From Escherichia coli (GTDB taxonomy: Bacteria > Pseudomonadota > Gammaproteobacteria > Enterobacterales > Enterobacteriaceae), in assembly GCF_003018255.1 (NCBI RefSeq), contig NZ_CP027440.1: 64,000 bases of DNA; one strand, given 5' to 3'. The notes beneath the pieces were generated by a model. That model searched no databases, was not told the DNA's origin, and saw only the letters and a program-made list of their open reading frames with translations. The position numbers were made by a program, and so were the translations under genes. Shown here one piece after another: positions 3,267 through 13,873 of the stretch (positions are counted from its first letter, which is position 1; each line of letters begins with the position of its first letter).

Positions 3267-4130
3267 TCAGAGCTTTGTTGCGCTGAAATAATGTTCTGGT
3301 TTGGCAATACGATCCTGAGCAGCAACCACTTGCAGCTCATATTCCTGCATTGCTTTGGTGGTCACCATGATTTCGTATACTGCAGCGGTCACATGTTCCA
3401 GAGCCTCCTGCAGCGTTGCCCCCTGAAGCAGTTTCACCAGCAGTAAACCGCTCGTCACATCACCAACACCTACCGGCTGGCGCATACCAAAATCCACCAG
3501 CGGACGGCTGATATGCCAGGCTTCATCGGCGGTAACCAGCAGCATTTCAAAACGGTCACGGCTGTAGCCAGCCCGCGCCAGGTGTTTAACCAACACAATT
3601 TGTGGCCCTTGCGCAATGAGTTCACGCGCTGCCAGAACCGCTTCTTCGACGTTATTTACCGCATGCTCACAGAGTATTTCCAGCTCAACCAGATTCGGCG
3701 CAATGATATCGCTGGCAGGCAAACCGTGCCGCACATGAAACTCTGCGACACCCGGTGCAACGATACAGCCTTTTTCCGGATGACCCATTACCGGATCGCA
3801 AAAATATTTCGCCTGCGGATTCGCTGCTTTCACCTGACGAACGATACCGAGAATATGTTCACCCTGCTCCGCCGAACCCAGATAGCCACTTAATACGGCA
3901 TCACAGGTGTGTAATTTATCAATGGCGGCAATGCCTTGCACAATTTCGGTTAAATGGCTGGGCGGCATCACGCAGCCAGTCCATTTGCCGTATTGAGTGT
4001 GATTAGAAAATTGAACGGTGTTCAGCGGCCAGACGTTCGCGCCCAGGCGGCGCATCGGAAACTCTGCCGCACTGTTACCCGCATGACCATAAACAACGTG
4101 AGACTGGATAGCGAGAATATTTTTCATCAT
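3267..4130 (-). CDS. pdxY: pyridoxal kinase 2
   Basis: 287 aa [25 protein letters not shown]...; recognised as PdxY; upstream gene of the pdxY-tyrS-pdxH arrangement. Confidence 0.92.
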
Positions 4131-4188: not shown

Positions 4189-5463
4189 TTATTTCCAGCA
4201 AATCAGACAGTAATTCTTTTTGCCGCGACGCAATAAGGTAAAACGACCAAACAGACGATCTTCTTCTTTAAAGAAGTATTCAGGATCGGACTGTTTTTCA
4301 CCGTTAATGGTGATGGCATTGGAGGCGATAGTTTTACGCGCCTGACCACGGGAAGGTTGCAGTTCAGAATCGACCAGCGCCTGCATCAGGTCTGCGCCCT
4401 TCTCCATCTCAACCATCGGTACGCCGTCCTGCGCCAGCTGTTCGAAGTCCGCTTCACTCAGCGCACTCAAGGAACCGCTGAACAGGCATTCGGTAATACG
4501 TTTTGCCGCCTGCAAACCGTCTTCACCATGCACCAGACGTGTCACCTGTTCTGCAAGCACATACTGGGCGCGCGGTGCTTTACCGCTGTTTTTATCTTCT
4601 TCTTCCAGGGCGTTGATCTCTTCAATGCTCATGAAGGTGAAGAACTTCAGGAAGCGGTAAACGTCGGCATCCGCAGTGTTGATCCAGAACTGGTAGAATT
4701 TGTACGGGCTGGTTTTCTTCGGATCCAACCAGACTGCGCCGCCTTCAGTTTTACCAAATTTGGTGCCGTCTGCTTTGGTGATCAGCGGAACGGTCAAGCC
4801 AAACACCTGATTCTGATGCAGACGACGGGTCAGGTCGATACCAGAAGTGATGTTACCCCACTGGTCAGAACCACCGATTTGCAGCACCACACCGTACTGT
4901 TTGTTCAGACAGGCGAAGTCATAACCCTGCAACAGGTTGTAGGAAAACTCAGTGAACGAAATCCCCTGATCTTCACGGTTGAGACGCTGCTTAACCGCTT
5001 CTTTGTTGATCATCTGGTTAACGGAGAAGTGTTTGCCAATATCGCGCAGGAAGGTCAGCACATTCATATTGCCGAACCAGTCATAGTTGTTCGCCGCGAT
5101 AGCAGAGTTTTCTCCACAGTCGAAATCGAGGAACGGGGCAACCTGCTTGCGGATTTTGTCCACCCACTCCTGAACAGTTTCTTCAGTGTTCAGCTTACGC
5201 TCGGCAGCTTTGAAGCTCGGGTCGCCAATCAGACCCGTCGCGCCGCCTACCAGCGCAACCGGCTTGTGGCCCGCCTGCTGGAAGCGTTTCAGGCATAACA
5301 ATGGAACAAGATGCCCCAAATGCAAGCTGTCAGCGGTAGGATCGAAGCCGCAATAGAGCGCGATCGGGCCTTGCGCCAGTCGCTCTGCTAACGCTTCCTC
5401 GTCCGTCACCTGGGCTACCAGCCCCCGCTCTTGCAATTGTTTAATCAAGTTACTGCTTGCCAT
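4189..5463 (-). CDS. tyrS: tyrosyl-tRNA synthetase
   Basis: ORF track gives 428 aa ([10 protein letters not shown]...); GGAG lies 8 nt before the second ATG, giving the 424 aa form [14 protein letters not shown]; HLGH class I motif present. Confidence 0.93.
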
Positions 5464-6733: not shown

Positions 6734-7843
6734 TCACGGGTTAGCGGGGAAAATAGCCCCGAGTACCGTCTCCTGGCTTGCGCCAGTGACGGAAGGCAGA
6801 TTTCCTGGTAATCCCGCAAGCGTCCGCCAGGCAAGCCAGGCGAAAGCCAATGCTTCCATGTCATCGCCACTAATGCCAACGGCATCAGTGGTGGTGACTT
6901 CTGTGCCTGGCAGTAATGCCGCCAGACGCGCCATGAGTAGCGGATTACGACTTCCTCCACCACATACCATCAATCGTTCACAGCCACCGCTCAACAAAAC
7001 TTGTTCAGAAATGGTCACGGCGGTGAGTTCTGCCAGTGTGGCCTGCACATCACGGGGATCAACACCCGGAAAATGGCGCAAATGGCGCTCCAGCCAGCCG
7101 TAGTTAAAGTATTCGCGTCCGGTGCTTTTCGGTGCGGGTTGCGAGAAATACGGGTCGCTGAGCATATTTTGCAGCAGTGGGAGAATAACTTTACCCGCCC
7201 GTGCCCACTCGGCATCTTTATCGTAAGGTTTACCGGCCTGACGCCAGATCCAGGCATCCATCAGCATGTTACCAGGACCGGTATCGTAGCCCCCAACCGG
7301 CTGCCCAGGAATGAGCAGTGACAGATTGGCGATGCCGCCAATATTGAGCACCATTCGTCGCTCGGTTGGGTGAGCCAGCAGCGCATGATGGAACGCAGGT
7401 ACCAGCGGTGCGCCTTGTCCTCCCAAGGCAATATCGCGACGGCGAAAATCACCGACAACCGTAATTCCGGTGCGTGCCACAATTTGATTGTTATCGCCAA
7501 TCTGTAAAGTGTGTGGTGCCACGCCCGTCGGTTCATGCCAGACGGTTTGACCGTGACAGCCGATCGCAACGATATCTCTCGCCTGCAGGTTTTGTTCCTT
7601 AAGCAAGGCATTGACCGCATCAGCAAAAAGTCGCCCGAGTTGAGTATCAAGCTGTCCAAACTGAGAAAGTGTAAGCTGCTGGCCCTGGCAAATATCCAGT
7701 ACAGCCTGTTTCAGAGACACCGGGATCGGCCAGCTCAAACTTGCCAGCTGTGCGACCCGGTGTTCATCAATTGTCGCCAACACAACATCAACACCATCAA
7801 GGCTGGTGCCTGACATAACGCCAATAAAGCGGCCCGATTTCAT
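6734..7843 (-). CDS. anmK: anhydro-N-acetylmuramic acid kinase
   Basis: 369 aa [26 protein letters not shown]...; recognised as AnmK/YdhH. Confidence 0.92.
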
Positions 7844-7976
7844 AGTTCATCCTTTTTCAATCTGACGTTTGCGCACCACTCAAACATAAACTTTTCGTGA
7901 ATACCATGCGGAATGACCGATTTTTACCGTTGGTAGTAAAACATTATCTTCAAATCAATAATCATCATGAATGTTT

Positions 7977-7993
7977 TGTTTATAATTGGTTGA
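7977..7993 (+). promoter_or_regulatory. candidate PhoP box upstream of slyB
   Basis: TGTTTA-N5-GGTTGA direct repeat about 125 bp upstream of the slyB start; slyB is a known PhoP-activated gene. Confidence 0.4.
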
Positions 7994-8116
7994 TCCTACT
8001 TTCATTATGATTTGCTCATATTTGGTAGAACATGTAACCATGGATTCACATATGCCATATACTTTGACCATGAGGGATGCTTGCGTGGCGTTTCATGGTG
8101 AACAGGAGATTTTTCA

Positions 8117-8584
8117 ATGATTAAACGCGTATTGGTTGTTTCAATGGTAGGTCTGTCTCTTGTCGGTTGTGTTAATAACGACACCCTGTCAGGGGATGTT
8201 TATACCGCTTCTGAAGCGAAACAAGTACAGAATGTCAGCTATGGCACCATCGTTAACGTACGTCCGGTACAGATTCAGGGCGGTGATGATTCCAACGTTA
8301 TCGGCGCAATTGGCGGTGCTGTTCTTGGTGGTTTCCTGGGGAATACTGTTGGTGGCGGAACCGGGCGTTCTCTGGCTACTGCTGCAGGCGCTGTTGCAGG
8401 TGGCGTAGCCGGTCAGGGCGTACAGAGTGCAATGAACAAAACGCAGGGTGTCGAGCTGGAAATTCGTAAAGACGATGGTAATACCATCATGGTGGTACAG
8501 AAACAAGGCAACACTCGTTTCTCTCCGGGCCAACGTGTCGTACTGGCCAGCAATGGCAGTCAGGTGACCGTTTCCCCGCGCTAA
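8117..8584 (+). CDS. slyB: outer membrane lipoprotein SlyB (glycine-zipper)
   Basis: 155 aa ORF with signal peptide, lipobox LVGC and Gly-rich GAIGGAVLGGFLGNTVGGGTG segment. Confidence 0.93.
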   Translation: MIKRVLVVSMVGLSLVGCVNNDTLSGDVYTASEAKQVQNVSYGTIVNVRPVQIQGGDDSNVIGAIGGAVLGGFLGNTVGGGTGRSLATAAGAVAGGVAGQGVQSAMNKTQGVELEIRKDDGNTIMVVQKQGNTRFSPGQRVVLASNGSQVTVSPR

Positions 8585-8593
8585 ATAAGTTTG

Positions 8594-8620
8594 CGTGTGG
8601 TCAGGTTACTGACCACACGC
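8594..8620. terminator. bidirectional stem-loop between slyB and slyA
   Basis: 11 bp perfect inverted repeat GCGTGTGGTCA/TGACCACACGC in the 46 bp convergent gap. Confidence 0.7.
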
Positions 8621-8630
8621 CCCCTTCATT

Positions 8631-9065
8631 TCACCCTTTGGCCTGTAACTCAATGATATTATGCTCAAGTTTTGCGATGAGCTTAATCAGTTGTTCCAGT
8701 TCCTCTGCGGAGATGCCATGTAAAATTTCCGCGCGGGTTTTGTTAATAACAGCTTCCATTTCGCTGATCAGCGGCTCTGCCTTTTCCGTCAGTTTAATAC
8801 GTTTAGCCCGACGATCGCTGGCACAAGTTTGACGCGAAATTAACCCTTTTTCTTCCAGTTGGTCCAGAGTACGGACCAGTGATGGCTGCTCGATGCCAAT
8901 CGCTTTTGCCAGTTGAATTTGCGACTGGTCTGGAGGTAACTGATGGATATTGTGTAACGTAACCCAATGGGTTTGTGTTAACTCCAGCGGTTTCAGGCGA
9001 TGGTCTATCAGAGCACGCCATATGCGCACCAACCGTGCCAGATCAGAACCTAGTGGCGATTCCAA
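8631..9065 (-). CDS. slyA: MarR-family transcriptional regulator SlyA
   Basis: ORF track 146 aa from ATG at 9071 ([11 protein letters not shown]...); I recall a 144 aa annotated form starting two codons later at TTG; either way clearly SlyA. Confidence 0.9.
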
Positions 9066-9265
9066 TTTCATCTCCTTATAATTAGCTTGCTAAGATATTA
9101 TGCGGCTTTTAGAATAGTGTGCAGCAATTGTATTGCTAAAACAAATGTATTGCTGCATTTGGTTACCGTCAGACATATTTTTCAGAAATTGCGCGTAAAT
9201 TTTTCGCACTTAAAGAATATTTATTAATCTAACGCAATATATTCGGTCGTAAAGGAATCTACTTT

Positions 9266-9502
9266 GTGAAGTTTATGCTCAATGCAACAGGATTGCCCTT
9301 ACAAGATCTGGTGTTCGGTGCGTCCGTCTACTTTCCTCCGTTTTTCAAAGCCTTCGCGTTTGGATTCGTCATCTGGCTTGTCGTACACCGCCTGCTTCGT
9401 GGCTGGATCTACGCCGGTGACATCTGGCATCCCTTGTTAATGGATTTATCGCTGTTTGCGATTTGCGTTTGCCTTTCCCTGGCAATACTGATTGCGTGGT
9501 AA
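9266..9502 (+). CDS. ydhI: small inner-membrane protein (DUF1656, AaeX-like)
   Basis: 78 aa hydrophobic ORF immediately upstream of ydhJ; recognised as YdhI. Confidence 0.85.
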
Positions 9503-9504
9503 CT

Positions 9505-10362
9505 ATGTCAATTAAAACAATTAAGTATTTCTCAACAATCATTGTAGCGGTAGTTGCGGTTCTTGCCGGATGGTGGCTGTGGAATTATTACATGCAATCT
9601 CCGTGGACACGCGACGGGAAAATACGCGCAGAACAGGTTTCTATCACCCCTCAGGTGTCGGGACGTATTGTTGAGCTGAATATAAAAGACAACCAACTGG
9701 TTAACGCGGGGGATCTTCTGCTCACGATCGATAAAACGCCCTTTCAGATCGCCGAGCTGAACGCACAGGCTCAGTTGGCGAAAGCGCAATCTGACCTCGC
9801 AAAAGCCAATAACGAAGCGAATCGTCGTCGTCATCTCTCACAAAATTTTATTTCTGCCGAAGAACTCGATACCGCTAACCTCAATGTTAAAGCGATGCAG
9901 GCCAGTGTTGATGCCGCACAGGCGACGCTGAAACAGGCACAATGGCAACTGGCGCAAACGGAAATTCGCGCCCCGGTGAGTGGATGGGTGACTAACCTCA
10001 CTACCCGCATCGGCGATTACGCTGACACCGGGAAACCGCTGTTTGCCCTTGTCGACAGCCACTCGTTTTACGTCATTGGTTATTTTGAAGAAACCAAGTT
10101 GCGCCATATCCGCGAAGGTGCACCAGCACAAATTACCCTCTATAGTGATAACAAAACGTTACAGGGTCACGTTTCCAGTATCGGTCGGGCGATTTATGAT
10201 CAGAGCGTTGAAAGTGACTCAAACCTTATTCCGGATGTGAAACCTAACGTCCCCTGGGTTCGCCTCGCCCAACGAGTTCCCGTCCGCTTTGCGCTGGATA
10301 AAGTCCCAGGCGATGTCACGCTGGTGTCGGGCACCACCTGTAGTATTGCCGTAGGTCAATAA
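9505..10362 (+). CDS. ydhJ: membrane fusion protein (HlyD/AaeA-like efflux adaptor)
   Basis: ORF track 299 aa from 9463; internal Met [24 protein letters not shown] gives 285 aa with an N-terminal TM anchor; stop TAA overlaps the ydhK ATG in TAATG. Confidence 0.85.
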
Positions 10363-12374
10363 TGAACGCATCGTCATGGTCCTTGCGCAATTTGCCCTGG
10401 TTCAGGGCCACGCTGGCGCAATGGCGTTATGCGTTACGCAATACCATTGCCATGTGTCTGGCGCTGACGGTTGCCTATTATTTAAATCTGGATGAACCCT
10501 ATTGGGCGATGACCTCGGCTGCCGTGGTTAGCTTTCCCACCGTTGGAGGTGTCATCAGCAAAAGCCTCGGACGCATCGCTGGCAGTTTGCTCGGAGCCAT
10601 TGCGGCACTGCTTCTTGCCGGACATACGCTCAATGAGCCGTGGTTTTTTCTTTTGAGCATGGCGGCGTGGCTTGGCTTTTGTACCTGGGCCTGTGCGCAC
10701 TTCACGAATAATGTCGCGTATGCATTTCAACTGGCGGGCTACACAGCTGCCATCATCGCCTTTCCGATGGTTAATATTACTGAGGCCAGCCAGCTGTGGG
10801 ATATCGCTCAGGCGCGCGTTTGCGAGGTGATTGTCGGTATTTTGTGCGGCGGCATGATGATGATGATCCTGCCGAGCAGTTCCGATGCTACAGCCCTTTT
10901 AACCGCATTGAAAAACATGCACGCCCGATTACTGGAACATGCCAGTTTACTCTGGCAGCCTGAAACAACCGATGCCATTCGTGCAGCACATGAGGGGGTG
11001 ATTGGACAGATACTGACCATGAATTTGCTCCGTATCCAGGCTTTCTGGAGCCACTATCGTTTTCGCCAGCAAAACGCACGCCTTAATGCGCTGCTCCACC
11101 AGCAATTACGTATGACCAGTGTCATCTCCAGCCTGCGACGTATGTTGCTCAACTGGCCCTCACCGCCATGTGCCACACGAGAAATTCTCGAACAGCTGCT
11201 GACGGCGCTCGCCAGTTCGCAAACAGATGTTTACACCGTCGCACGTATTATCGCCCCGCTACGCCCGACCAACGTCGCCGACTATCGGCACGTCGCCTTC
11301 TGGCAGCGACTACGTTATTTTTGCCGCCTTTATCTGCAAAGTAGTCAGGAATTACAACATCTGCAAAGCGGTGTGGATGATCATACCAGACTTCCACGGA
11401 CATCCGGCCTGGCTCGTCATACCGATAACGCCGAAGCTATGTGGAGCGGACTGCGTACATTTTGTACGTTGATGATGATTGGCGCATGGAGTATTGCTTC
11501 GCAATGGGATGCCGGTTCCAATGCATTAACGCTGGCAGCAATTAGCTGCGTACTCTACTCCGCCGTCGCAGCACCGTTTAAGTCGTTGTCACTGCTGATG
11601 CGCACGCTGGTGTTACTTTCGCTATTCAGCTTTGTGGTCAAATTTGGCCTGATGGTCCAGATTAGCGATCTGTGGCAATTTTTACTGTTTCTCTTTCCAC
11701 TGCTGGCGACGATGCAGCTTCTTAAATTGCAGATGCCCAAATTTGCCGCATTGTGGGGGCAACTGATTGTTTTTATGGGTTCGTTTATCGCTGTCACTAA
11801 TCCCCCGGTGTATGATTTTGCTGATTTTCTTAACGATAATCTGGCAAAAATCGTTGGCGTTGCGCTGGCGTGGTTAGCGTTCGCCATTTTGCGTCCAGGG
11901 TCGGATGCTCGTAAAAGCCGTCGTCATATTCGCGCGCTGCGCCGGGATTTTGTCGATCAACTTAGCCGCCATCCAACACTGAGTGAAAGCGAATTTGAAT
12001 CGCTCACTTATCATCACGTCAGTCAGTTGAGTAACAGCCAGGATGCGCTGGCTCGCCGTTGGTTATTACGCTGGGGTGTAGTGCTGCTGAACTGTTCTCA
12101 TGTTGTCTGGCAATTGCGCGACTGGGAATCGCGTTCCGATCCGTTATCGCGAGTACGGGATAACTGTATTTCACTGTTGCGGGGAGTGATGAGTGAGCGT
12201 GGCGTTCAGCAAAAATCACTGGCGGCCACACTTGAAGAATTACAGCGGATTTGCGACAGCCTTGCTCGTCATCATCAACCTGCCGCCCGAGAGCTGGCGG
12301 CAATTGTCTGGCGGCTGTACTGCTCGCTTTCGCAACTTGAGCAAGCACCGCCGCAAGGTACGCTGGCTTCTTAA
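10362..12374 (+). CDS. ydhK: FUSC-family (AaeB-like) efflux/inner membrane protein
   Basis: 670 aa multi-TM ORF; start overlaps the ydhJ stop by 1 nt, suggesting translational coupling. Confidence 0.88.
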
Positions 12375-12896
12375 TTACTTAATTACACCACAGGCATAGC
12401 GTTCACCGCCACCGCCCAGCGGTTTAGGTTGATCGGACATATTATCGCCGCCAACGTGGACCATCAGTGCTTTGTCTTTGACTTCATCCAGTGATTTCAG
12501 ACGAGGCGCGATGACGGCATCGGTAGCTTTGCCGTCATTATTGACGACCAGTGCAGGCAGATCGCCTAAATGCCCGGCACCTTCTGGCCCTTCATGTTTA
12601 CCGGTATTTTGTGGATCAAGATGCCCGCCTGCGGATTCTGCGGCGCTGGCTTTGCCATCTTTGGTGGCTGGCTGGCAGCTTCCTTTGGCATGAATATGGA
12701 AGCCATGTTCACCGGGAGGTAATGCTTTCAGATCGGGCGAAAACTCCAGACCTTTATCGGTTTCAGTAATGGTGACGCTACCAATTGACTGCCCAACCCC
12801 TTGCGACGTGACGAGGTTCATCTCGACTTTTTCACTGGCAGCTTGTGCGCCGGTCGCAACAACCAGCGCCAGAATGGCCAGACTAAAACGTTTCAT
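12375..12896 (-). CDS. sodC: periplasmic Cu,Zn superoxide dismutase
   Basis: ORF track 190 aa; internal start MKRFSLAILALVVATGAQA (signal peptide) gives 173 aa; His-rich copper-site motifs HGFHIHAKGSC and GGGGERYACGVIK. Confidence 0.92.
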   Translation of the reverse strand: MKRFSLAILALVVATGAQAASEKVEMNLVTSQGVGQSIGSVTITETDKGLEFSPDLKALPPGEHGFHIHAKGSCQPATKDGKASAAESAGGHLDPQNTGKHEGPEGAGHLGDLPALVVNNDGKATDAVIAPRLKSLDEVKDKALMVHVGGDNMSDQPKPLGGGGERYACGVIK

Positions 12897-12976
12897 AAGA
12901 CCTCCGTTCATTGTGCATTCCTGAATAAGTGTAAACCAGTGACACATTTTTGAACGGCAGCTATTCCTAAAAGTGC

Positions 12977-13873
12977 TTACGGTACGTCGTAACCTAGTGC
13001 CGCTTTACGGATACGGAACCATTGTTGACGGGTCATTTTCAGTGTTTCTGCTTCGACTGCTGCCCGTACGCGCTCAATTTTACCTGAGCCGATAATTGGC
13101 AGCGGCTGCGACGGTAAACGTAATACCCAGGCGTAAACCACCTGTTCAATCGAGCCCGCGTTTAACTCCTCTGCCACCACAGCCAGTTCATCACGCAGCG
13201 GCTGGAAATAATCATCATTAAACAGACGACCACCACCAAGGCAGGACCACGCCATCGGACGAACACGCAGTTGTTGCAGTTGGTCGAGCGTGCCATCCAG
13301 CAGTAACGGCTGATGTACCGGGGATATTTCCACCTGATTAGTGGCAAGGGTAAACGGCAGGCGTGATTGCAAAAGCGCAAATTGCACAGGCGTAAAGTTC
13401 GATACGCCAAAATGACGCACTTTGCCGCTCTGATGCAGATGTTTAAACGCGTCCGCCACTTCATCGGCATCCATTAACGGGTCTGGTCGGTGGATTAACA
13501 GCAGATCCAGATGATCGGTCGCGAGATTAATTAGCGACTGTTCGGCGCTCTTAATGATGTGATCGCGGTCAGTGATGTAATGACCAATGACGTTTTCTTC
13601 ACGCGCGGTCGTCGCGATACCGCATTTACTGACGATTTCCATCCGTTCACGCAGGTGAGGTGCCAGTTTCAACGCCTCGCCAAACGCCGCTTCGCACTGA
13701 TAGCCACCATAAATATCAGCATGGTCCACGGTGGTCACGCCGAAATCCAGATGCTCTTCAATAAAACTGACCAGCTGGCGGGCGGACATATTCCAGTCCA
13801 TCAATCGCCAGTAGCCCATCACAAAACGGGAAAACTCCGGGCCTTGCGGCGCAATAGTAATACGCTGAACCAT
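12977..13873 (-). CDS. ydhF: aldo-keto reductase family oxidoreductase
   Basis: 298 aa ORF; recognised as YdhF. Confidence 0.88.
   Translation of the reverse strand: MVQRITIAPQGPEFSRFVMGYWRLMDWNMSARQLVSFIEEHLDFGVTTVDHADIYGGYQCEAAFGEALKLAPHLRERMEIVSKCGIATTAREENVIGHYITDRDHIIKSAEQSLINLATDHLDLLLIHRPDPLMDADEVADAFKHLHQSGKVRHFGVSNFTPVQFALLQSRLPFTLATNQVEISPVHQPLLLDGTLDQLQQLRVRPMAWSCLGGGRLFNDDYFQPLRDELAVVAEELNAGSIEQVVYAWVLRLPSQPLPIIGSGKIERVRAAVEAETLKMTRQQWFRIRKAALGYDVP

Follow-up and report, generated by a model that had tools for sequence, protein, structure and literature searches.

slyA/ydhIJK of Escherichia coli, a conserved divergent locus that very probably encodes a FUSC-family export module under SlyA and sigma-E control

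The slyA/ydhIJK locus of Escherichia coli very probably represents a conserved unit that encodes an export module of the FUSC family under the control of the transcription factor SlyA and the envelope-stress sigma factor sigma-E. It was analyzed in a 64,000-nucleotide stretch of the E. coli chromosome (contig NZ_CP027440.1, assembly GCF_003018255.1), hereafter called the window, in which the genes follow each other in the order anmK, slyB, slyA, ydhI, ydhJ, ydhK, sodC, and ydhF. The divergent arrangement, the parallel to the aromatic-acid exporter AaeAB, SlyA binding and repression, relief by salicylate, and a fusaric-acid phenotype are already in print (2017-2025), and slyA/ydhIJK is annotated in every E. 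coli genome; as a finding of a genome scan it is nothing new. Added here are the conservation of gene order and gene overlap over about 25 genera, the duplicated fold of YdhK, which resembles plant ALMT malate channels, and the EmrA-type architecture of YdhJ with its short hairpin.

In our model, YdhIJK would be an export module of the inner membrane that belongs to the FUSC family (ArAE/PET, TCDB 2.A.85), with YdhK as the membrane transporter, YdhJ as an EmrA-type periplasmic adaptor, and YdhI as a small two-helix accessory subunit. The three proteins would be made from one transcript, whose near-zero gene spacing favors coupled translation, and would most likely export aromatic or other organic carboxylate anions. 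SlyA binds the shared 200-bp region and represses the pump in Salmonella and Klebsiella, aromatic carboxylates such as salicylate release SlyA from the DNA, and sigma-E strongly induces ydhIJK in E. coli. Anions may be conducted through an ALMT-like pore lined by K67, R71, and R152 of YdhK, and YdhIJK may further feed a route across the outer membrane.

Results

slyA/ydhIJK is a conserved unit of the E. coli core genome

slyA (8631..9065, minus strand) encodes a MarR-family transcription factor of 144 aa from the TTG start given in the RefSeq annotation. An in-frame ATG two codons upstream defines an alternative open reading frame (ORF) of 146 aa (8631..9071). The Shine-Dalgarno sequence AAGGAG abuts this ATG (9071) without any spacer, but lies 6 nt ahead of the TTG (9065). 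Thus, the unusual TTG start is favored because the spacing fits TTG and not ATG. On the opposite strand, ydhI (9266..9502, plus strand) begins with GTG and encodes a two-helix membrane protein of 78 aa with a DUF1656 domain, a paralogue of AaeX. Two nucleotides further downstream, ydhJ (9505..10362, plus strand) encodes a membrane-anchored periplasmic adaptor (membrane fusion protein, MFP) of 285 aa, a paralogue of AaeA, followed by ydhK (10362..12374, plus strand), which encodes an inner-membrane FUSC-family transporter of 670 aa with two tandem repeats, a paralogue of AaeB. The ydhJ stop and the ydhK start overlap in the motif TAATG (10360..10364, plus strand), where TAA (10360-10362) and ATG (10362-10364) share one base. 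The original prediction, made from the same DNA, had described slyA as divergent from ydhIJK across a 200-bp spacer; this holds when the distance is counted from the annotated TTG, while counting from the ATG gives 194 bp. Its family assignments (ydhI, DUF1656; ydhJ, MFP; ydhK, FUSC; slyA, MarR) are all recovered by Pfam.

A query of 4.2 kb around slyA/ydhIJK was compared with 5426 complete E. coli genomes and matched 5425 of them, with at least 80% of the query covered in 5409. slyA/ydhIJK is therefore a conserved core-genome unit of E. coli. Compared to K-12, ydhK of this strain differs at 40 nucleotides but at only 5 of the 670 encoded residues. The idea of a divergent ydhK allele in this strain, raised by database representatives of 95-96% identity, was dropped in view of these 5 differences.

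Conservation extends beyond the species. Taking one genome per species, we found 297 YdhK relatives and compared the best 80 of them; these loci represent about 25 genera of Enterobacteriaceae, with YdhK identities of 73-95%. slyA lies divergently upstream of ydhI-ydhJ-ydhK in 79 of the 80 loci, and the contig of the remaining one is cut. At the ydhJ/ydhK junction, the genes overlap by 1 nt in 39 species and by 4 nt in 26, and the gap is at most 8 nt in all. Between ydhI and ydhJ, 2 nt separate the genes in 46 species, and no species has more than 10 nt. Likewise, the GTG start of ydhI and its Shine-Dalgarno sequence AAAGGA are kept across genera. Chance cannot account for these features of the locus. 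The overlap and the near-zero spacing support the view that ydhIJK would constitute one operon with coupled translation. As to the coupling of ydhJ and ydhK via TAATG that had been originally predicted, the overlap itself is real and coupling is supported by its retention in 65 of 80 species, while coupled translation as such is deduced from gene layout.

Rare database entries contain YdhJ and YdhK fused into one chain, namely P0002 (845 aa) and P0048 (900 aa, Salmonella enterica). Such fusions are expected because a change of a single base at the stop/start overlap would join the two frames. Each of them is a single-member cluster and may reflect a sequencing error.

The shared control region carries a conserved SlyA box and a candidate sigma-E promoter

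The slyA-ydhI control region (9066..9265) comprises 200 AT-rich base pairs with a GC content of 32%, compared to 50% for the window, and is 100% identical to that of K-12 MG1655. Within the 5' leader of slyA it contains the box TTAGCAAGCTAA (9082..9093, minus strand), a 12-mer that we take to be the high-affinity consensus of SlyA (Stapleton et al. 2002). This is the sole exact match within the 64 kb, where 0.01 would be expected by chance, and the exact box is present in 79 of the 80 related species. A 12-bp consensus high-affinity SlyA site is also mentioned in a study of Salmonella (PMC6401476).

Two further SlyA-like sites match the consensus at 9 of 12 positions. One is TTGTATTGCTAA (9128..9139, minus strand), a putative second site, the other TTATTAATCTAA (9221..9232, plus strand), which is located 34-45 nt ahead of the ydhI start. 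In total, four strand-specific matches with at most three mismatches fall into the intergenic region and define three distinct sites, whereas 0.29 are expected from shuffled sequences (P 0.0015). TTATTAATCTAA aligns with a better palindrome of Salmonella, TTAGCTATAACTAA, and by this alignment the site at 9221-9232 may serve as an operator in E. coli as well.

The two halves of the control region differ in their conservation. Its slyA-proximal half (9066-9155, 90 bp) is at least 90% conserved across the 80 species, whereas the ydhI-proximal ~100 bp diverge among them, in agreement with the description in PMC6401476. The divergent half also harbors a candidate sigma-E-type promoter of ydhIJK (9205..9232, plus strand), composed of cGCACTT, a spacer of 16 nt, and TCTAA, which emerged from our own consensus scan and is kept within Escherichia only. 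It is a plausible candidate for the sigma-E promoter. ydhI, ydhJ, and ydhK are absent from the main text of Rhodius et al. (PMC1312014), which was checked for the promoter position.

SlyA binding and sigma-E induction agree with published data

By profile, the regulator is SlyA. It matches the Pfam family MarR with an E-value of 7e-17 and scores 278.9 bits against the NCBIfam equivalog NF002926 (cut-off 120), with positions 1-143 of 144 aligned. In K-12, SlyA binds a slyA-ydhI fragment with an apparent dissociation constant of ~50-100 nM in electrophoretic mobility shift assays (EMSA; Curran et al. 2017, PMC5797941). The published EMSA primers map to 9066-9088 and 9245-9265. Consequently, the fragment bound by SlyA corresponds exactly to 9066-9265 of the window.

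In Salmonella, SlyA represses ydhI about 19-fold in vitro and salicylate relieves this repression (Will et al. 2019, PMC6401476). The same work, which comprises in vitro transcription and footprinting, describes a salicylate-sensitive SlyA operator with a 75% match to the consensus near the -35 element of the ydhI promoter. Repression of ydhIJK by SlyA in Salmonella was confirmed by RNA-seq (Will et al. 2025, PMC12506092). Further, disruption of kvrA, the slyA orthologue of Klebsiella, raised YdhJ 45- to over 100-fold in proteomics (10.1101/845925).

Control by sigma-E, which the original prediction had missed, is likewise documented in E. coli. ydhIJK RNA rises 20-fold on sigma-E induction, and a known sigma-E start site is listed (PMC7075262). 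ydhK also appears in the list of the sigma-E regulon, and its overexpression is toxic (PMC2685091). Hence the checks proposed with the original prediction (SlyA binding and expression, susceptibility of ydhIJK strains) are largely already published for E. coli or close relatives.

The loci of Salmonella Typhimurium (slyA-ydhIJK) and Klebsiella pneumoniae (kvrA-ydhIJK) consist of orthologous genes in identical arrangement, and in both the SlyA box is retained along with the slyA-proximal control sequence. They differ from E. coli in the ydhI-proximal promoter half, where the Salmonella operator is degenerate in E. coli and accompanied by the Escherichia-specific sigma-E-like motif.

YdhIJK is paralogous to AaeXAB and related to other FUSC modules

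The resemblance of ydhIJK to aaeXAB, noted in the original prediction, stands as paralogy and fails as orthology. Compared to the K-12 proteins (from NC_000913), YdhI is 33% identical to AaeX (E 1e-5), YdhJ 41% identical to AaeA from end to end (E 5e-68), and YdhK 24% identical to AaeB (E 3e-28). The best NCBIfam matches of the three proteins are the equivalog models of AaeX, AaeA, and AaeB, respectively, but all scores stay below the cut-offs: 21.4 vs 82 bits for YdhI (NF008615), 243.8 vs 400 for YdhJ (NF007850), and 121.6 vs 870 for YdhK (NF007916). Since all three miss their cut-offs, YdhIJK are paralogues and not orthologues of AaeXAB.

AaeXAB (YhcRQP) and YdhIJK have DUF1656, MFP, and FUSC genes in the same order, a divergently encoded regulator, and adaptor hairpins of equal length in AaeA and YdhJ. 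Moreover, neither has a linked gene for an outer-membrane factor (OMF); for AaeXAB, the partner was given as '?' in a 2021 review. In contrast, the regulator of aaeXAB is the LysR-type activator AaeR, while that of ydhIJK is the MarR-type SlyA, a repressor in relatives. Control by sigma-E is additional at ydhIJK, and aaeA and aaeB are 5 nt apart where ydhJ and ydhK overlap.

Modules of a FUSC transporter and an MFP also occur as MdtNOP (SdsRQP), FusCDE-Bucl8 of Burkholderia, and FuaABC of Stenotrophomonas. FusCDE-Bucl8 is a fusaric-acid resistance pump with a small 'DUF' subunit, FusD, and its inner-membrane parts are the same as those of ydhIJK (PMC7682875). In contrast to ydhIJK, which encodes no such channel, these three systems possess their own outer-membrane channel (MdtP, Bucl8, and FuaA). 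MdtN is 33% identical to YdhJ, and its hairpin is ~50 residues longer. MdtO aligns weakly with YdhK and in swapped repeats, the N-repeat of YdhK matching the C-repeat of MdtO (E 6e-6). YtcA, encoded upstream of mdtN, was considered as a counterpart of YdhI and dropped, as the sequences are unrelated. The order DUF1656-MFP-FUSC also holds in distant relatives that are 25-28% identical, and transposon fitness data tie DUF1656 to MFP+FUSC pumps (10.1101/072470).

The YdhK model is a duplicated ALMT-like fold with one conserved set of pore residues

YdhK matches the Pfam family FUSC (PF04632) with an E-value of 7.6e-140, residues 20-661 covering positions 1-658 of 660 in the family model. A first homologue search had returned close orthologues only (at least 76% identity) and was replaced by a representative search with 3115 related clusters, from which an 88-sequence alignment served as input for structure prediction. 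The AlphaFold model (predicted local distance difference test, pLDDT, 94; predicted template modeling score, pTM, 0.91) is all-helical and comprises two transmembrane (TM) bundles, with a cytosolic helical domain after each of them. The N- and C-terminal halves are homologous to each other (hhalign probability 96.5%, E 7.8e-10, 285 columns). This internal repeat emerged with profiles only and was not significant in plain BLASTP of the two halves (E 0.19).

Among solved structures, plant ALMT malate channels are the best Foldseek matches of the model. The top nine matches all have a probability of 1.00, and the next best reaches at most 0.21. Analogously, the YdhK family profile finds ALMT channels among the sequences of the Protein Data Bank (PDB) with E-values of 4e-9 to 7e-7, while the single sequence gives a marginal match to ALMT12 only (E 0.24). 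In the profile alignment, R71 and R152 of YdhK correspond to R80 and R165 of ALMT1. The arginines in TM3 and TM6 of ALMT channels are described as malate-coordinating pore residues (2026 preprint, 10.64898/2026.03.10.710584). K67, R71, and R152 of YdhK are basic in 98-100% of the 88 sequences. Of their counterparts in the C-repeat, R414 is basic in 38% of the sequences and D492 is variable. As judged from this alignment, only the N-terminal repeat of YdhK keeps the pore arginines.

One FUSC protein of M. tuberculosis, which has a single repeat, is reported to form an ALMT-like dimeric alpha-ketoglutarate channel (10.64898/2026.03.10.710584). ALMT channels and the mycobacterial Rv2571c are homodimers of one repeat, whereas YdhK contains two diverged repeats per chain, has the basic pore residues in the first repeat only, and has an adaptor in the periplasm and a small subunit as partners. 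From the model, YdhK could plausibly pass organic anions through a pseudo-dimeric pore, driven by the membrane potential and not by proton antiport.

A cluster of shortened YdhK sequences, P0087 (535 aa, 519 member sequences), is 99% identical over 80% of the length, which points to a lineage whose ydhK is shortened or was called differently.

YdhJ resembles EmrA with a short hairpin

YdhJ matches the Pfam families HlyD_3, HlyD_D23, and Biotin_lipoyl_2 with E-values of about 1e-17. Its AlphaFold model (pLDDT 78) consists of a TM helix (3-31), a lipoyl domain, an alpha-hairpin (78-109/118-150), and a beta-barrel, without a membrane-proximal domain. EmrA in the EmrAB-TolC complex is the best fold match (Foldseek E 5e-17), and EmrA, AcrA, and MacA all reach a probability of 1.00. 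EmrA shares the N-terminal anchor, the lipoyl domain, the hairpin, and the beta-barrel with YdhJ and also lacks the membrane-proximal domain. In contrast, it is ~105 residues longer, apparently mostly in the hairpin. By its predicted fold, YdhJ is an EmrA-type adaptor with a short hairpin, whose arms of ~32 residues each would span ~48 Å at 1.5 Å per helical residue.

Some YdhJ orthologues carry paired insertions in both arms of the hairpin, as does MdtN. As these insertions are matched, the reach of the adaptor differs between genera, while the transporter is conserved. Longer orthologues, of 298-312 aa as compared to 285 aa, were seen in the loci L044 (5063-5998), L064 (5038-5970), and L077 (5105-5998).

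No OMF gene was found in the operon or within 6 kb of it in the 80 species, nor beside two distant relatives. Hairpin length was considered as a predictor of OMF use and dropped. FusE of Burkholderia is short (~293 aa, from the gene coordinates in PMC7682875) and still has Bucl8, while the longer MdtN has its own OMF.

YdhI scores 53.7 bits against DUF1656 (gathering score 26.5, E 2e-14) and has two hydrophobic segments, in line with a two-helix membrane protein. The motifs YFPPxF and WHPxLxD of YdhI recur in AaeX and in distant relatives; in the latter, a DUF1656 gene also lies immediately upstream of the MFP gene. In one such locus, L085, whose YdhK is 28% identical, an uncalled ORF of 66 aa (3906-4106) upstream of the MFP gene encodes a DUF1656 protein with the motifs YFPPF and WHPAL. 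Small subunits of this family are probably under-annotated.

Discussion

Gene order, junctions, the SlyA box, and published regulation jointly describe a conserved FUSC-family module under SlyA and sigma-E control, and several points weigh against this view. Evidence for export by YdhIJK is indirect and comes from the literature, and a metabolomics screen in E. coli still lists YdhK among orphan transporters (PMC10971958). At 30 ug/ml fusaric acid, growth of a Salmonella ydhIJK deletion strain is delayed and that of a slyA mutant is improved (PMC6401476); the effect of the deletion is a growth delay and not a measured efflux. The statement of the original prediction that the exported substrate is unknown thus holds for the physiological substrate, which is given as undetermined in PMC12506092, and gives way with regard to this fusaric-acid phenotype. 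As no OMF gene is linked, export beyond the periplasm is putative. Finally, E. coli retains little of the ydhI-proximal control sequence, the Salmonella-type operator included, and overproduction of SlyA in K-12 raised ydhIJK 2.2-fold (PMC5797941) and did not lower it. This rise is the only expression datum from K-12, and the sign of SlyA control in E. coli may thus differ from that in Salmonella. The alignment of the degenerate TTATTAATCTAA with the Salmonella palindrome TTAGCTATAACTAA offers an explanation that may account for the opposite effects of SlyA.

Three other explanations of the locus were weighed against this evidence. YdhIJK could be a second copy of AaeXAB that shares its substrates, p-hydroxybenzoate and related compounds, and likewise acts as a 'metabolic relief valve'. 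Gene order and the three families are indeed shared, YdhJ is 41% identical to AaeA over the full length and has a hairpin of equal size, and the Aae models are the best NCBIfam matches of all three proteins. Nevertheless, we regard a second copy as unlikely, given scores far under the equivalog cut-offs (21 vs 82, 244 vs 400, and 122 vs 870 bits), a YdhK that is just 24% identical to AaeB, regulators that differ in kind (MarR-type SlyA vs LysR-type AaeR), the presence of both ydhIJK and aaeXAB in K-12, and the treatment of the YdhIJK substrate as undetermined by authors who themselves note the homology to AaeAB (PMC12506092). Alternatively, ydhIJK of E. coli might be a cryptic, essentially silent remnant that has no current function. 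No K-12 phenotype has been published for the operon, YdhK is still classed as an orphan, ydhK overexpression is toxic, and the operon has been repeatedly lost outside the E. coli/Salmonella cluster (PMC6401476). A remnant is highly improbable, however, for an operon that is intact in 5409 to 5425 of 5426 genomes, whose frames are intact and whose junctions are conserved in 80 species, and in which synonymous changes greatly exceed replacements in ydhK (40 nucleotide and 5 amino-acid differences from K-12). Moreover, its RNA rises 20-fold on sigma-E induction, and ydhK transposon mutants are among the bloodstream fitness candidates of uropathogenic E. coli.

The third alternative concerns the physiological task. 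The module might release an endogenous anionic metabolite, for instance an aromatic or tricarboxylic acid (TCA)-related carboxylate that is also the ligand of SlyA, with protection from fusaric acid as a side effect and YdhK acting as a gated ALMT-like anion channel and not as a proton antiporter. This is a tentative proposal that deserves serious consideration, although we place it below even chances. In its favor, plant ALMT malate channels are the best solved folds for YdhK (profile E 4e-9 to 7e-7), the near-invariant R71 and R152 occupy the alignment positions of the two pore arginines of ALMT1, and the single-repeat FUSC protein of M. tuberculosis is reported to be an ALMT-like alpha-ketoglutarate channel (10.64898/2026.03.10.710584). 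An endogenous substrate is also favored by the authors of PMC12506092, and induction by sigma-E points to stress physiology and not to drug defense. On the other hand, periplasmic adaptors usually belong to active tripartite pumps and not to channels, and TCDB places the FUSC family among secondary carriers. We retain the conserved export module under SlyA and sigma-E control as the preferred reading.

Extending the comparison to the family, YdhK, AaeB, and the other two-repeat FUSC proteins could be fused, asymmetric ALMT-like anion conduits in which K67, R71, and R152 line a potential-driven path into the duct of YdhJ, with no proton antiport. We consider this generalization possible but rather doubtful. 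If true, channel-plus-adaptor efflux would be a mechanistic class undescribed among envelope pumps, and the endogenous substrate of YdhIJK could be the natural ligand that tunes SlyA. Such a mechanism concerns the whole FUSC family rather than the slyA/ydhIJK locus. The ALMT-like fold and the one-sided conservation of arginines designate R71 and R152 as concrete residues to mutate, and the alternative to proton antiport is testable family-wide, also in AaeAB, a pump employed to engineer aromatic-acid tolerance. For the locus itself, the remaining value is modest and lies in the in vivo substrate, the need for TolC, the difference in sign of SlyA control between E. coli and Salmonella, and the mechanism of FUSC transporters.

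Flanking elements

A scan of 7800-13200 with Rfam returned no RNA family and a single match at chance level (E 0.23). Downstream of the operon, ydhK ends in TAA (12372-12374), and the next base already belongs to the stop codon of sodC, which runs toward ydhK and whose stop reads TTA on the plus strand (12375-12377); 0 intergenic bases separate the two genes. This junction therefore has no room for a terminator, which implies that the convergent transcripts read into each other. The distance between the stop codons of ydhK and sodC ranges from -25 to +14 nt in 67 other species of Enterobacteriaceae, 38 of which have overlapping coding ends.

On the other side, where slyB and slyA converge, the sequence between them holds a GC-rich hairpin (8593..8620) whose stem measures 12 bp (dG, folding free energy, -24.8 kcal/mol; z -6.05). 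It scores as terminator-like, with a T-rich tail, on the minus (slyA) strand only and is likely a predicted terminator that bounds the slyA transcript.

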